A DNA stretch of 13,730 nucleotides. Source: a virus. The stretch lies in UHGV virus genome UHGV-0087644, one strand, 5' to 3'. Below are positions 633 to 10,198 of this stretch, in pieces. The notes under the pieces were generated by a model that was not told the DNA's origin, did no database searches, and worked only from the letters and a program-made list of their open reading frames with translations. Numbering within the stretch: the stretch's first letter is position 1; every line of letters starts with the position of its first letter. Position numbers and translations under genes: made by a program.

Positions 633-1113
633 TGGTTACCTCCTTCATAAAAATAATCCAGTGGGTCTTGTCACCCTTTCCTGTTCGTTGACCGATAACA
701 GGCTTTCTGTCGGTCAGTGCCAATATCTGGCGAACAGGTATTTGCGTTTCATTCCATTTAAAAATCAGAACGCCGTATGGCCACAACACACGAAAGGCTT
801 CTTTGAATCCCTGCCGTAAATCATCACGCCAGGTATCTTTATTCAGCCGTCCATATTTCTTTCCCATCCAGGCGTTATCACCAACACGCTCAAGATGCGG
901 AGGGTCGAATACAACCATCGAAAAGGATGCGTCTGCAAATGGTAGTGCACGAAAATCAGCCATCAGGTCAGGACTGATAATCAGGCGTCGTCCATCACAC
1001 AATGTGTGCTCTTCCTTTCTGATATCGCTAAATATCGCCCGGTCGTCATTCTTATCGAACCAGAACATGCGACTACCACAGCACATGTCGAGGATTGCTG
1101 CATGTCCAGTCAC
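619..1113 (-). CDS. small SAM-dependent methyltransferase, probably DNA N6-adenine/N4-cytosine type
   Basis: 164-aa ORF; motif-I-like ILDMCCGS near N-terminus and motif-IV-like VVFDPPH about 60 aa later; GTG start at 1113 with strong SD AAGGAGG, overlapping upstream stop (GTGA). Target and base specificity not determinable by eye. Confidence 0.55.
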   Translation of the reverse strand: MTGHAAILDMCCGSRMFWFDKNDDRAIFSDIRKEEHTLCDGRRLIISPDLMADFRALPFADASFSMVVFDPPHLERVGDNAWMGKKYGRLNKDTWRDDLRQGFKEAFRVLWPYGVLIFKWNETQIPVRQILALTDRKPVIGQRTGKGDKTHWIIFMKEVTSERD

Positions 1114-1802
1114 TGGTTGCCTCCTTTGCGAAGCTGGGCATCGGTATTGATGCGACTAAAATAGAATCCGAATACTTTCTTCCATGGCTTAACAACAGCG
1201 TCCCTGATTGAGTTTGGGTTAAATCCAGCCTCGATGGCCTGTTTGCTGTCAAAGAACACATACCCAAAACCTTCCTCGTTCTCAGCGCAGACTGGACCTT
1301 TATACGAACCGTGTTTTCTTCCCCCGGCCAGACCTGTTCTATATGCGTGCTGAGTGTTGCCCGCTACCGTCGTCCACTCCAGGTTTGAAACATCATTGTT
1401 TTGTTTATTCCCGTCTATATGGTTAATTACGTGCTCATCAGAAGGCTTAGGGCCGAGAAAGTTTTCAGCAACTAATCGGTGGATGTTCACGCCTTTTAGT
1501 TTTCCTTCAAGCTCCAGCCTAACGAATAAATACTGATTTCTGTTCTTGCCGCGCATGGTTGGGTTTAATTGCTTTAGTTCGCCAGAGGCCAATGAGAAAA
1601 TGAGTCCCTTTGAGGTGATGAAATAGCGATACTTAAAACCAAAAATCTCTTTCACATCGCCAAATAAGTCAGCCAGCGCCGCGCACTTGGCCTCCGCTTC
1701 AGCAAATTTACGCACCAGATATTCAGCGTTTGTTTCGTTAACCTTTAAATCACTTGGGATGCATTTACCTTTCAGAAATCCATCCATCTCAATTAGTGTC
1801 AT
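1110..1802 (-). CDS. HNH homing-endonuclease-like protein (NUMOD4 + HNH_3 type)
   Basis: Track ORF 1110-1829; contains [17 protein letters not shown] (NUMOD4-like) then [20 protein letters not shown] (HNH_3 signature). Start chosen at ATG 1802, which overlaps the upstream stop (ATGA); 1811 or GTG 1829 are alternatives. Confidence 0.7.
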
Positions 1803-1972
1803 TTGTTCCATTTCTTCCCACTCCGCCACATTGCATTCAGATATTTGTTGTCATTAACAGAACCGAAACTATTTCTCTTAAGCAATTCCTCTCTCGATGG
1901 CATTGGCTTTACGCGTTGGCGAATAATCATTTCTGCCGGAAGAATGCCGGGATTGTATGCAAGTCCTCTCAT
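1799..1972 (-). CDS. hypothetical small protein (57 aa)
   Basis: Sub-ORF of track ORF 1799-2122; ATG at 1972 preceded by GAGGA; stop overlaps HNH start. The longer track version would overlap the upstream gene extensively. Confidence 0.3.
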
Positions 1973-3548: not shown

Positions 3549-3697
3549 TTCCTGCGATACCACGGAAGGTTGATAGCTGATTTCATCGCTTTATTTGCTT
3601 CAATCCACATTTTTGAATCACCAATAAATCTGGCTATTACTGCTTTGTTCTGTGCTGCACGAAGCATCTGGTGATTGATGGCTATTTCATTGCGCAT
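3545..3697 (-). CDS. kil: Kil-like host cell-division inhibitor
   Basis: 50-aa ORF not in track: MRNEIAINHQMLRAAQNKAVIARFIGDSKMWIEANKAMKSAINLPWYRRK; resembles lambda Kil (FIGD-containing core) from memory; immediately downstream of cIII, start overlapping the cIII end. Confidence 0.55.
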   Translation of the reverse strand: MRNEIAINHQMLRAAQNKAVIARFIGDSKMWIEANKAMKSAINLPWYRRK

Positions 3698-3813
3698 AAT
3701 AAGACCTCAACTCTTTTCCATCCGTCACGTAATTTACGGGTGATTCGTTCAAGTAAAGATTCATTTAGTTGGAAGGCACCCATGCGAGCGCCTCCCGCGA
3801 TTGCGTAAATCAT
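3682..3813 (-). CDS. cIII: CIII, FtsH/HflB protease inhibitor
   Basis: 43-aa ORF not in track; contains ESLLERITRKLRDGWKR, matching the conserved lambda CIII core; ATG at 3813 preceded by SD AAGGAA. Confidence 0.8.
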   Translation of the reverse strand: MIYAIAGGARMGAFQLNESLLERITRKLRDGWKRVEVLLCAMK

Positions 3814-3837: not shown

Positions 3838-4806
3838 TTAGTAGGTTATTTTTGTTGCGAATACTTCGCCTTTTACGATGGCTGTTATGATATTTTTAGC
3901 AACATCTTCTGATGCGCCAACCTTGATAAGGTCAGCAAGTATTTTGTTATTTACTTCTTTCCGGTGAGCTTTATCCTTTGCTCTACGCTCTTCTTCGTCC
4001 TTGATTCTTTTTCCTTCTGCTATTCTGGCTTGCTCTTTTGCTTCAGCCTCGCGCCGGATTCGTTCAGCCTCCTCCTGTGCTTTTCGGCGTTCTGCTTCAA
4101 TTGCCGCCTGCTTTTCTCTTTCAGCTCGTTCTGCTGCCTCTTTTGCTTCGCGCTGTGCTCGTTGCTCGGCTTCAATGCGTTCACGCTCTGCACGTTCCGC
4201 TGCGGCCTTAGCTTCTGCTTCTCGCCTTGCTGCTGCTTCAATTTCGGCTTTTGCCTTTGCTTCGGCTTCTGCTCTGGCTTTCTCTTCAGCTTCTCTTTTT
4301 AAGCGTTCTTCATACTCTCGCTTTTCCTGCTCCGCTTTGAGTCTTGCCTCTTCTCTTTGGCGGTCAAATTCGCGATCCATCAAAATAGCTATTTCATGGT
4401 CAGACTCAATTTGCTTTGCGAGAGCTTCAGCTGCTGCCTTAGCTTCTTCTTCGGCTTTAATCCGTGCCTGTTCCTCCTCATAATCAGTAAGAGGCTGGCG
4501 CGCCTTGGCTTTCAGTTCATCAAGGCGATCGCGCACTGTCTTGCGGTTGGCATCAATTAGCTTTGGAATTTCCTTCAGTTCAGCAACAAGGTCTTTGCCA
4601 AGACCATCGAGATATGTTTTCGTCTGCGCAACTTTATACGCCAGAGAAGCGATCTCCTTTCTGCCCTTTGCCGTTGTGATATCAGGCACAAAGGACATAA
4701 CTTCACGTTCAACCCTTTGAAGGATTTCTTCAATCTGGTCGGCAGACTGAAATACAGTCATTGCATTTGCTTTTTCAATAACAACTAAATCTGTTACTTC
4801 ACTCAT
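3838..4806 (-). CDS. coiled-coil protein with long E/R/K/A-rich helical segment, function unknown
   Basis: 322-aa track ORF; ATG 4806 with SD GGAGG; folded-looking N-terminal about 110 aa, then about 160 aa of charged low-complexity helix (EAEAKAKAEIEAAARREAEAKAAAERAERE...), then short C-terminal domain ending KITY. Confidence 0.7.
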   Translation of the reverse strand: MSEVTDLVVIEKANAMTVFQSADQIEEILQRVEREVMSFVPDITTAKGRKEIASLAYKVAQTKTYLDGLGKDLVAELKEIPKLIDANRKTVRDRLDELKAKARQPLTDYEEEQARIKAEEEAKAAAEALAKQIESDHEIAILMDREFDRQREEARLKAEQEKREYEERLKREAEEKARAEAEAKAKAEIEAAARREAEAKAAAERAERERIEAEQRAQREAKEAAERAEREKQAAIEAERRKAQEEAERIRREAEAKEQARIAEGKRIKDEEERRAKDKAHRKEVNNKILADLIKVGASEDVAKNIITAIVKGEVFATKITY

Positions 4807-7770: not shown

Positions 7771-7834
7771 TGCATTTTTGAAGAAAACTTAATTTTATGG
7801 GCGTGAATTTAGTTTGTCTTTGATTTTTAACGGG

Positions 7835-7860
7835 AAATAAAAAAGGGGCGAAAGCCCCTT
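7835..7860 (-). terminator. rho-independent terminator for the cI transcript
   Basis: Stem AAGGGGC/GCCCCTT (7843-7849 / 7854-7860) with GAAA loop, followed on the minus strand by UUUUAUUU; overlaps the cI stop codon. Confidence 0.55.
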
Positions 7861-8509
7861 AAGGAAGGTTTGCTAGCTTGGCATCAACGACAACGCCAAT
7901 GATTTTACAGTTCCCATTGATTTCAATCATTGGGTATTGTGGATTGAGTGGTTTCAGGAATTTTCTACCGGCATCAATAACTAACTTTTTGAATGTCGCC
8001 TCGTTTTCCCCTTCAAGTTTGGCGACTACCAGCTTTCCATTACGTGGTTCGACTTCTGGGTCGACGAGAATAATCATCCCCTCAGGAATACTCAGTCCTG
8101 CCGGGGCAGTCATTGAATCGCCTTTAACGTCGAGCCAAAAAGAGTCTTCAGAACAATCTACCGTTGTGTCGTACCAGTTATCTATTGCACGCCTATGATA
8201 TGGCTCTACAGCTTCCATCCAACATCCTGCGCTTACCCAACTAATTAGAGGATACGAACCTCTTGGATCATGCCTGCTGTGATAGGCAATGTTTGAAAGA
8301 CTATCCTCTCCTTTCAACAGGTAATCAGGGGAGCACTGCAAAGCCTTGGCTAAGGCCAATAGGTTTTCGCCATTGGGCTCAGTTTCAGATCGCTCCCATT
8401 GGGAAATAGCAACATTAGACACGCCAACCATCTTGCCAAGGGCAGCCTGCCTAATCTTGAGTTCTTTTCTGCGAGCGCGAATACGCTCACCCATCAGTTG
8501 TGTATTCAT
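7859..8509 (-). CDS. cI: CI-type prophage repressor (HTH + S24 LexA-like peptidase domain)
   Basis: 216-aa track ORF; N-terminal HTH (QAALGKMVGVSNVAISQWER); C-terminal FWLDVKGDSMTAPAGLSIPEGMIILVDP...ATFKKL...FLKPLNPQYPMIE closely parallels the lambda CI C-terminal domain. Confidence 0.9.
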   Translation of the reverse strand: MNTQLMGERIRARRKELKIRQAALGKMVGVSNVAISQWERSETEPNGENLLALAKALQCSPDYLLKGEDSLSNIAYHSRHDPRGSYPLISWVSAGCWMEAVEPYHRRAIDNWYDTTVDCSEDSFWLDVKGDSMTAPAGLSIPEGMIILVDPEVEPRNGKLVVAKLEGENEATFKKLVIDAGRKFLKPLNPQYPMIEINGNCKIIGVVVDAKLANLP

Positions 8510-8589
8510 AGTTAAGACATCTTAAATAAACTTGACTTAAGATTCCTTTGGTGGATAATTTAAGTGTTCTTTAACTTCGGAGCGAGTCT
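8510..8589. promoter_or_regulatory. oR operator region with divergent pR / pRM promoters
   Basis: Palindrome TTAAGACATCTTAA (8512-8525); pR -35 TTGACT (8532-8537) and -10 GATAAT (8554-8559); degenerate operator-like TTAAGTGTTCTTTAA (about 8559-8574); SD GGAG before cro ATG 8590. Confidence 0.65.
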
Positions 8590-8775
8590 ATGTACAAAAA
8601 AGATGTTATTGACCACTTCGGAACCCAGCGTGCTGTTGCTAAAGCACTAGGCATTAGCGATGCAGCAGTCTCTCAGTGGAAAGAAGTTATCCCAGAGAAA
8701 GACGCCTATCGATTGGAAATCGTTACAGCTGGCGCCCTGAAGTATCAAGAAAGTGCTTACCGCCAAGCGGCATAA
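8590..8775 (+). CDS. cro: Cro-like repressor (YdaS/Cro HTH family)
   Basis: 61-aa track ORF immediately downstream of pR, divergent from cI; HTH region GTQRAVAKALGISDAAVSQW. Confidence 0.75.
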   Translation: MYKKDVIDHFGTQRAVAKALGISDAAVSQWKEVIPEKDAYRLEIVTAGALKYQESAYRQAA

Positions 8776-8781
8776 GCAAAT

Positions 8782-8822
8782 TGCTCTTTAACAGTTCTGG
8801 CCTTTCACCTCTAACCGGGTGA
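8782..8822 (+). promoter_or_regulatory. nutR: boxA plus boxB hairpin
   Basis: boxA TGCTCTTTAACA (8782-8793), 11-nt spacer, boxB stem UCACCU/GGGUGA (one G-U pair) with loop CUAACC (8805-8822), the same loop as nutL. Confidence 0.6.
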
Positions 8823-8890
8823 GCAAACATCAGCGGCAAATCCATTGGGTGTGCCGCTATAACTCAATATCAATATAGGAAAATTAACAA

Positions 8891-9187
8891 ATGGCACAAG
8901 CAAGCTACAGCAAGCCAACACAGCGAGAAATTGATCGCGCTGAAACTGATTTACTCATCAACCTGTCAACGCTTACCCAGCGCGGTCTGGCAAAGATGAT
9001 TGGCTGTCATGAATCGAAGATAAGCAGAACGGACTGGCGGTTTATTGCTTCGGTCCTGTGTGCTTTCGGAATGGCATCAGACATCAGTCCGATTAGCAGG
9101 GCTTTTAAGTATGCGCTTGATGAAATCACAAAGAAAAAATCCCCGGCCGCCACCGAGGATTTTAAGCAAATTGATATGCAATTCTGA
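8891..9187 (+). CDS. cII: CII transcriptional activator
   Basis: 98-aa track ORF; ...LAKMIGCHESKISRTDWRFI... and C-terminal KKKSPAATEDFKQIDMQF parallel lambda CII (HTH and C-terminal tail). Confidence 0.85.
   Translation: MAQASYSKPTQREIDRAETDLLINLSTLTQRGLAKMIGCHESKISRTDWRFIASVLCAFGMASDISPISRAFKYALDEITKKKSPAATEDFKQIDMQF
8900..8913 (-). promoter_or_regulatory. candidate CII-binding site (TTGC-N6-TTGC) of a pRE-like leftward promoter
   Basis: Plus strand GCAAGCTACAGCAA, i.e. TTGC-N6-TTGC on the minus strand, inside the first codons of cII, where lambda pRE lies. Confidence 0.4.
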
Positions 9188-9219
9188 GTGAATTACTGGA
9201 TCAATCCACAGGAGTAATT

Positions 9220-9381
9220 ATGACAAAACGTCGTAAGAAATACCAGGAAAAAGAAGAGATTCGACACCCTGATTCACCTGAGGGATTAGTGGTAGCCGCA
9301 GCAAATAACAGGGCGTTCGCAGAGCGCCTTGTTGGTGTTTACAGACTAGCCAAAGCAGGAGTGAAACATGGGCGTCGTTAA
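9220..9381 (+). CDS. possible small basic protein (53 aa) between cII and O
   Basis: Not in track; ATG 9220 preceded by AGGAG; [53 protein letters not shown]; 3' end overlaps the O start by 14 nt. Confidence 0.3.
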   Translation: MTKRRKKYQEKEEIRHPDSPEGLVVAAANNRAFAERLVGVYRLAKAGVKHGRR

Positions 9382-10198
9382 GTTAGCTGATTACAGGCCT
9401 CAACTGGAGGTCGTGGAGCATCGCGTGGCAGAACTCGAAGATGGCTACACTCGGACTGCAAACACACTGTTAGAAGCCGCCATGCTTTCTGGACTTACTC
9501 TACATCAGTTACTGATTGTTATGGCTGTGTGGCGCAAGACATACGGTTACAACAAAAAAATAGATTGGATCGGAAACGAACAGTTCGCTGAACTCACTGG
9601 CATGGCACCAACCAAATGCTCTACCGCCAAAAACGAGCTTATCAGAATGGGAGTTCTCATTCAGGTTGGGCGTCAAGTTGGTATGAATACAAACATTTCC
9701 GAGTGGAAAACGAAAGTTAACGGATTCGGTAAAACATTTACCAATTCGGTAAAACAAACCTTCACCAAATCGGTAAAAAGCAATTTACCGAATCAGTCAA
9801 ACACAAAAGACAATATACAAAAGACAATAAATACAAATACCCCCTTACCCCCTAACGGGGATGGCGATGGGCAGGTTAAACCTGAACGTCGCAAGGCAGA
9901 ACGAATCGACTACGAATCCTTCCTGAACGCCTACAACACCGAAGTCGGTGACAGACTTCCACACGCTGTTGCGGTCAACGAGAAACGAAAACGCCGCCTG
10001 AAGAAAATCATCCCGCAACTGAAAACGCCAAACGTGGACGGTTTCAGGGCGTATGTCAGGGCTTTTGTGCATCAGGCCAAGCCGTTTTACTTCGGAGACA
10101 ACGACACGGGCTGGACGGCTGATTTTGATTACCTGCTTAGGGAAGACTCGTTAACGGGAGTTCGGGAAGGGAAGTTTGCAGACAGGGGGATTGCATGA
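9368..10198 (+). CDS. O: replication initiation protein O homolog
   Basis: 276-aa track ORF after cII; SD AGGAG; iterons and an A/T-rich stretch inside the coding region; stop overlaps helicase start (ATGA). Confidence 0.75.
9724..9840. repeat. origin of replication: iterons plus A/T-rich region inside the O gene
   Basis: Direct repeats ATTCGGTAAAAC (9724-9735, 9744-9755), ATCGGTAAAAAG (9768-9779), inverted copy TTTACCGAAT (9784-9793), then A-rich 9801-9840. Confidence 0.6.

Follow-up and report, generated by a model that had tools for sequence, protein, structure and literature searches.

Regulatory signals that lie within coding sequence raise a recurrent question, namely whether the conserved letters serve the DNA or the encoded peptide. 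We consider this question for a direct repeat situated in the first codons of the activator gene cII, within a 13,730-base stretch of phage DNA (the whole of which is hereafter called the window). A first-pass annotation, made from the letters of the sequence, had proposed that a CII-dependent promoter located here drives transcription leftward, antisense through cro and into cI. Geometry, conservation and the GenBank annotation of related phages all point in the direction of that proposal. We assign a probability of roughly 0.9 to the reading that the repeat serves as the operator half of the CII-dependent promoter of repressor establishment, pRE, in a lambdoid phage that combines 21/P22-type immunity with a 21/HK97-type cII. 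What is observed directly is the anatomy of the sequence, the register in which it stands, the extent to which it is conserved and the family to which the adjacent protein belongs; these observations are set out below together with the alternatives on which they bear. The pRE feature as such is already known, as an identical 14-mer is annotated in phage 21, HK629 and mEp235.

The target of CII has been described as TTGCN6TTGC on either side of the -35 element in PRE, PI and PaQ (PMC4651098), and CII contacts both sides of this -35 (bioRxiv 10.1101/2025.05.02.651988). The target is common to P22 and lambda, and the pattern TTGCN6TTGC/T has served for the prediction of PRE and PaQ among P22-like phages (PMC2629481). 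With the motif defined in this manner (PMC4651098; PMC2629481), the window displays the sequence properties of the pRE class: a bracketing repeat, a poor -35, a -10 at 17 bp, a location within cII and a cognate gene of the CII family.

Genomic Context of the Site

The window represents the early region of a phage of the lambdoid group. The gene order cI (minus strand), cro (plus strand) and cII (plus strand) was verified by Pfam, which also identifies an O-type initiator and a DnaB-type helicase to the right of cII; the genes on the left side encode an N-like protein, Ral, CIII, Kil, Erf and Abc2. The genes cI, cII and cIII are all intact, and the features relevant to the establishment of lysogeny are collected in Table 1.

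Table 1. Features of the predicted promoter and of the surrounding establishment region, in window coordinates.
Feature	Position	Strand	Basis
Candidate CII-binding direct repeat TTGC-TGTAGC-TTGC	8900..8913	-	Sequence; lambda/P22 register; GenBank relatives; conservation
-35-position hexamer TGTAGC	8904..8909	-	Between both TTGC repeats; same bases are the minus_35_signal of phage 21
-10 hexamer TAATTT	8881..8886	-	Geometry; same hexamer is the pRE minus_10_signal of phage 21
Predicted leftward transcription start	A at 8874 (alternative A at 8876)	-	Lambda analogy only
cII (activator gene, 98 aa)	8891..9187	+	Pfam Phage_CII, E=2.7e-33
cro (P22/21 type)	8590..8775	+	Pfam P22_Cro, E=5.7e-28; annotated in relatives
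Prophage repressor (cI / P22 C2 type, 216 aa)	7859..8509	-	Pfam HTH_3 and Peptidase_S24; annotated in relatives
Terminator-like hairpin with T-run	7843..7860	-	Directly after the repressor stop codon
pR, TTGACT-16-GATAAT	8532..8559	+	Sigma-70 scan; promoter in HK629 and mEp235 annotation
cIII	3682..3813	-	Pfam Lambda_CIII, E=4e-15

According to DNA searches, the immunity region is of the 21/P22 type and adjoins a cII of the 21/HK97 type. Over positions 7800..9400 the best DNA matches are phiv205-1 and mEp235 (99.4-99.5%), HK629 (97.9%) and phage 21 (97.8%). No record spanning the whole window was found in the phage collection or in the collection of complete E. coli genomes, where the matches are mosaic and cover at most 65%; this pattern of partial matches is typical lambdoid mosaicism.

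Sequence and Geometry of the Predicted Promoter

On the plus strand, positions 8900..8913 read GCAAGCTACAGCAA, and the minus strand accordingly reads TTGCTGTAGCTTGC, i.e., the two TTGC repeats at 8913..8910 and 8903..8900 separated by TGTAGC. The letters thus bear out the earlier statement that a plus-strand GCAA-N6-GCAA corresponds to TTGC-N6-TTGC on the minus strand. With the cII ATG at 8891, the repeat occupies nucleotides +10 to +23 of cII on the opposite strand, extending from codon 4 to the second base of codon 8 (GCA AGC TAC AGC AA). It had also been proposed that this placement within the first codons of cII resembles that of lambda pRE, and indeed the offset of +10 to +23 is the same in both lambda and P22. 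Other TTGN registers in the vicinity (TTGG at 8918..8915, TTGT at 8899..8896) do not have the N6 spacing and were dropped.

With the start codon of cII taken as anchor, the minus-strand sequence is TTGC TGTAGC TTGC TTGTGC CAT TTGT TAATTT. As in lambda and P22, the repeat is followed by 9 nt that include CAT and by another 4 nt before the -10. The hexamer at the -35 position agrees with TTGACA at two of six bases and is therefore a poor -35 element. A sigma-70 consensus scan called pR but did not call a promoter in the region of 8900..8913, and this silence, together with the poor -35, is consistent with dependence on an activator.

The first-pass annotation had suggested looking for a -10 about 17 bp downstream on the minus strand, and the hexamer TAATTT (8886..8881) is present at exactly this distance from the inter-repeat hexamer, 13 nt past the proximal TTGC. 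It keeps the A at position 2 and the T at position 6, is preceded by TGT (with TG at 8889..8888) in a manner that resembles an extended -10, and lies, on the opposite strand, between the Shine-Dalgarno sequence of cII and its ATG. By analogy with lambda, a leftward start is predicted at about 8874, where an A lies 7 nt after the -10. Such a start would be convergent with that of pR, near 8566, at a distance of approximately 308 bp, and the predicted leader of approximately 365 nt would be antisense to the whole of cro.

The occurrence of the motif carries no weight when considered on its own, and it is its position and context on which the case depends. TTGCN6TTGC matches once in the 13,730-base window; dinucleotide shuffles yield an expectation of 1.10 matches, and at least one match is present in 136 of the 200 shuffles. 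The looser form TTGYN6TTGY likewise matches once (3.8 expected), so that no second site of this form exists elsewhere in the window, while 13 matches are obtained if one mismatch is allowed (21.6 expected, sd 4.9). Motif enrichment was hence rejected as evidence, since the exact, degenerate and one-mismatch counts are all at or under chance and thereby uninformative. Position, on the other hand, exceeds chance: the empirical rate of the motif is only about 4e-5 per position and strand (1.10 / 27,460), and the offset from the cII ATG and the strand are exactly those of lambda pRE and P22 PRE.

As an aside, TTGC-N6-TTGC-like sequences are somewhat rarer in the window than in the shuffles, although this effect is weak. 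For exact matches the rarity is absent from the whole genome of mEp235, which contains five, and the deficit in the window may reflect noise and not an avoidance of spurious CII sites.

Conservation at the DNA Level

In order to compare the site amongst relatives, we assembled 270 loci from annotated phage records and IMG/VR contigs, which were found in four single-protein scans with the CII proteins of the window, lambda, P22 and an Erwinia phage. These loci collapse to 90 distinct 120-mers around the cII start and represent four CII subtypes; they are highly redundant and were picked by protein similarity, so that the counts given below do not represent independent events. The comparison was ungapped and anchored on the ATG. 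When the DNA of the window was aligned by MAFFT with that of phage 21, lambda and P22, a spurious gap of 4 nt appeared and broke the register.

The pattern TTGC-N6-TTG[C/T] occurs in exact register in 88 of the 90 distinct sequences, and NANNNT is found at the -10 offset in all 90, while the relatives vary across 12 spacers and 14 -10 hexamers. When 11 diverse representatives are compared from -45 to +30, five of the eight motif positions are invariant and two more are nearly so; all three bases of the ATG and both the A and the T of the -10 are likewise invariant. Amongst the remaining 62 columns only one is invariant, and the mean pairwise identity there amounts to 38%.

These data bear directly on the possibility that the repeat is a matter of chance or a by-product of coding, in which the N-terminal residues of CII would happen to spell the repeat and the DNA itself would have no function. 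The site does lie inside an open reading frame, and a single match where 1.10 are expected is what such an explanation would predict. The encoded residues, however, differ by subtype: codons 4, 5, 7 and 8 specify A-S-S-K in the window, A-N-R-N in lambda, T-S-R-K in P22 and A-K-R-K in Midgardsormr38, and the GCAA nucleotides are nevertheless kept, including the synonymous third positions of codons 4 and 7. That GCAA persists while the residues change means that it is the DNA which is conserved and not the peptide. Moreover, 88 of 90 sequences hold the repeat in one fixed register with respect to the ATG and the -10, the spacer and flanks vary, and only one of the 62 other columns is invariant, which renders an origin by chance or coding exceedingly improbable. 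Judged from these alignments, the motif constitutes a phylogenetic footprint across diverged cII genes.

The same comparison addresses a second possibility, that the site is mainly autoregulatory and that bound CII would block the pR-driven transcription of cII or its translation. The evidence for this is positional: the start of cII coincides in part with the site, and the ribosome-binding region of this gene with the -10. A roadblock, however, would have no need of a -10, and the presence of NANNNT at a fixed 17 bp in all relatives reflects the requirement of a promoter. We hence regard a mainly autoregulatory role as very improbable and retain the reading as pRE.

Two of the 90 sequences carry imperfect half-sites. 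The locus L105 (IMGVR_UViG_643886152_000004) reads TTTC-N6-TTGC, and L110 (IMGVR_UViG_3300012999_000186) reads TTGC-N6-TTTC; the -10 is retained in both. Such sites could represent pRE promoters that have been weakened in nature, or else variants that are tolerated.

A further observation concerns the mosaic structure of the region. Homology to HK97 and the Stx phages starts at about 8861, which in terms of minus-strand transcription is just downstream of the pRE -10. To one and the same 5' end of cII, the relatives join at least four upstream modules that are unrelated and whose junctions fall within a few bases of the ATG (such as ttgtTAATTTtcctatattg, ttgtTAATTTtccaatagtg, ttctTACTATctccataggt and ttctTAATATttccaatagtg); NANNNT is found at equal spacing in every one of them. 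As each joined module keeps this hexamer pattern, the mosaic joints inside the promoter leave the promoter unbroken.

The CII Protein and Its Specificity

The product of the adjacent gene matches the Phage_CII profile (PF05269) over positions 1-90 of 91 with 114.5 bits, the cut-off being 21.3, and it also matches the lambda CII structures in the PDB (1xwr/1zpq/8igr, E=1e-4). It is 100% identical to CII of mEp235 and 99% identical to that of HK97, while identity to lambda CII and to P22 C1 amounts to 31% and 22%, respectively. When seven sequences that include the lambda, P22, 21 and Erwinia types are aligned, no variation is seen at A34, G38, S45 and R46 of the helix-turn-helix; S45 and R46 belong to the recognition helix, which reads ESKISR in the window and KSQISR in lambda, with Lys43 corresponding to Gln39 of lambda. 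Members of this family are characterised by a tetrameric assembly and by a tail at the C-terminus that is responsible for sensitivity to FtsH; the C-terminal segment KKKSPAATEDFKQIDMQF of the window protein aligns with NKKRPAATERSEQIQMEF of lambda.

The regions that would harbour pI- and paQ-type sites lie outside the window, and mEp235 and HK97 therefore served as proxies. In each of these two phages the canonical sites number three: the first is pRE, the second lies upstream of xis and the third antisense within Q. The site upstream of xis is TTGCGTGTAATTGC, whose 14-mer is identical to that of lambda pI (29091..29104), and the site in Q is TTGCGAGCACTTGC, whose 14-mer is identical to that of lambda paQ (44173..44186). 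A -10-like hexamer follows 13 nt downstream of each of these 14-mers. The coexistence of a CII of the same subtype with lambda-type pI and paQ sites argues, at the level of sequence comparison, that the 21/HK97-type CII shares the specificity of lambda CII.

Shared specificity is also what separates the reading as pRE from a third possibility, namely that the 21/HK97-type CII has drifted in its specificity and that the TTGC repeat is an unused relic. The identity of only 31% to lambda CII and the one substitution in the recognition helix would accommodate such drift, and our literature search found no binding or transcript-mapping study, nor any other direct experiment, on CII of the phage 21, HK97 or 933W type. 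Yet the site is strictly retained across many 21/HK97-type variants while neighbouring bases vary, and phages with an identical or 99% identical CII keep the 14-mers of pI and paQ exactly as in lambda. Furthermore, S45 and R46 are invariant, and cI, cII and cIII are intact. A vestigial site thus appears very unlikely.

A more modest departure from the lambda scheme would be a 21/HK97-type CII, with its Lys for Gln in the recognition helix, that has an extended or shifted sequence preference, or a CII site that doubles as a direct negative-feedback element on cII by occluding or blocking transcription from pR, apart from the antisense and convergent action of pRE; we consider such refinements to be very unlikely. 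Within the 21/HK97 subtype of CII the spacer is conserved as TGTARC.

The Proposed Establishment Circuit

With pRE as the preferred reading, the arrangement of genes and signals suggests the following course of events, in which binding and activation by CII, the transcript start and the downstream effects are inferred by analogy with lambda and P22. After infection, pR would express cro and cII, and CIII would shield CII from FtsH. In lambda, cIII encodes an FtsH inhibitor that stabilises CII, and the annotation of phage 21 designates its cIII as 'FtsH inhibitor'. A CII tetramer would then bind both TTGC repeats that bracket the very poor -35 and recruit the sigma-70 RNA polymerase to the -10 TAATTT. 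Transcription would proceed leftward from about 8874, antisense through the nutR/tR1 region and cro and across OR, and the transcript would cover the repressor gene (8509..7859) and end at the hairpin at 7860..7843. This hairpin is the likely end of both the pRE and the pRM transcripts; the same scan found no other terminator-like site on the minus strand between 8874 and 7860. The outcome would be a burst of repressor that establishes lysogeny, and at the same time pRE would oppose the expression of pR and cro via antisense as well as convergent transcription.

The window thus carries an intact circuit for the establishment of lysogeny, consisting of cII, cIII, pRE and cI. Beyond correct annotation, the significance of this is small. 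The combination of the TTGC-N6-TTGC rule with positional context reliably finds pRE in lambdoid genomes with a diverged CII, and the site provides an example of a regulatory DNA signal within coding sequence that is conserved independently of the peptide, a principle already established for lambda and P22.

Comparison With Known Systems

The closest counterparts are found in phage 21 (OL657228), HK629 (JQ182735) and mEp235 (JQ182731), which agree with the window in every letter of both the 14-mer and the -10 hexamer. The record of phage 21 gives the site two labels, 'CII binding site' as well as 'pRE CII-dependent promoter for repression establishment', and designates TAATTT as the -10, while HK629 and mEp235 label the 14-mer 'putative coliphage lambda cII binding site'; the site annotations in all three were made by similarity. 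Phage 21 and the window share all but one base, just after the -10, in the 90 bp that surround the start of cII. The two differ at the 3' end of cII, which is of the HK97/mEp235 type in the window and lambda-like in phage 21.

The pRE of lambda is arranged in the same manner. Its repeat (38369..38382) occupies cII positions +10 to +23 on the opposite strand relative to an ATG at 38360, and the sequence TTGC GTTTGT TTGC ACGAAC CAT ATGT AAGTAT likewise presents a very poor -35 between the repeats and a -10 that is 17 bp off, located between the cII Shine-Dalgarno sequence and the ATG and ending at 38350. In both cases the promoter converges on pR from a distance of approximately 310-320 bp (320 bp from PRE to PR in lambda; PMC5001618) and is directed antisense through cro into cI. 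The window differs from lambda in the spacer and -10 (TGTAGC and TAATTT as opposed to GTTTGT and AAGTAT) and in its immunity region, the cI, cro and operators of which are of the 21/P22 type. The lambda promoters pI and paQ share with the window site the TTGC-N6-TTGC repeat and a -10-like hexamer 13 nt downstream, but are located elsewhere, upstream of xis/int and antisense within Q, respectively.

P22 PRE (NC_002371, 32026..32058) also agrees with the window in register and direction, with its site at 32045..32058 and the ATG of c1 at 32036, and P22 shares with the window the type of its cro and repressor genes. The sequence, TTGC GAGTGC TTGT GAGTTC CAT ATGT GAACAT, differs in the site itself (TTGC-GAGTGC-TTGT) and in the -10 (GAACAT). 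The P22 record carries the label 'promoter RE; activated by P22 C1 protein' as well as a protein_bind feature for C1. One published version of this site, TTTCN6TTGT (PMC12111858), deviates from RefSeq, which reads TTTC TTGC GAGTGC TTGT. This looks like a slip in register, as the TTTC directly precedes the annotated C1 site, which is TTGC-N6-TTGT.

A different solution to the same task is represented by the YdaT-type regulators, which, according to PMC9986795, occupy the position of cII downstream of cro in lambdoid immunity regions and are functional equivalents of CII in some lambdoid prophages. YdaT is an unrelated POU-domain protein that recognises an inverted repeat, TTGATT-N6-AATCAA, whereas in the window a protein of the Phage_CII family is accompanied by a direct repeat of TTGC.

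Additional Features of the Region

Within the 3' end of cII, the minus strand carries a strong terminator-like hairpin with a T-run (9136..9163), situated in a stretch of about 9133..9202. The matching stretch of HK629 is labelled 'similar to coliphage lambda oop RNA', and the P22 record places the oop terminator and promoter at the matching location. This stretch probably encodes an oop-type antisense RNA against cII. At the gathering threshold, Rfam returned zero matches in the window, the oop-like and cIII-thermometer families included.

Two minus-strand open reading frames look like accessory genes of the early-left operon. One of them (3838..4806, 322 aa) lies between cIII and ral and has no Pfam match; annotations of E. 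coli prophages designate such a gene 'coiled-coil domain-containing protein' or 'TolA'. The other (1110..1829, 239 aa), located further to the left, contains an HNH_3 endonuclease domain. On the plus strand, an open reading frame of 53 aa (9220..9381), which belongs to no Pfam family, is found between cII and the O-type replication gene, the start of which it overlaps, and it is annotated in relatives as an HK97 gp53-like hypothetical protein.
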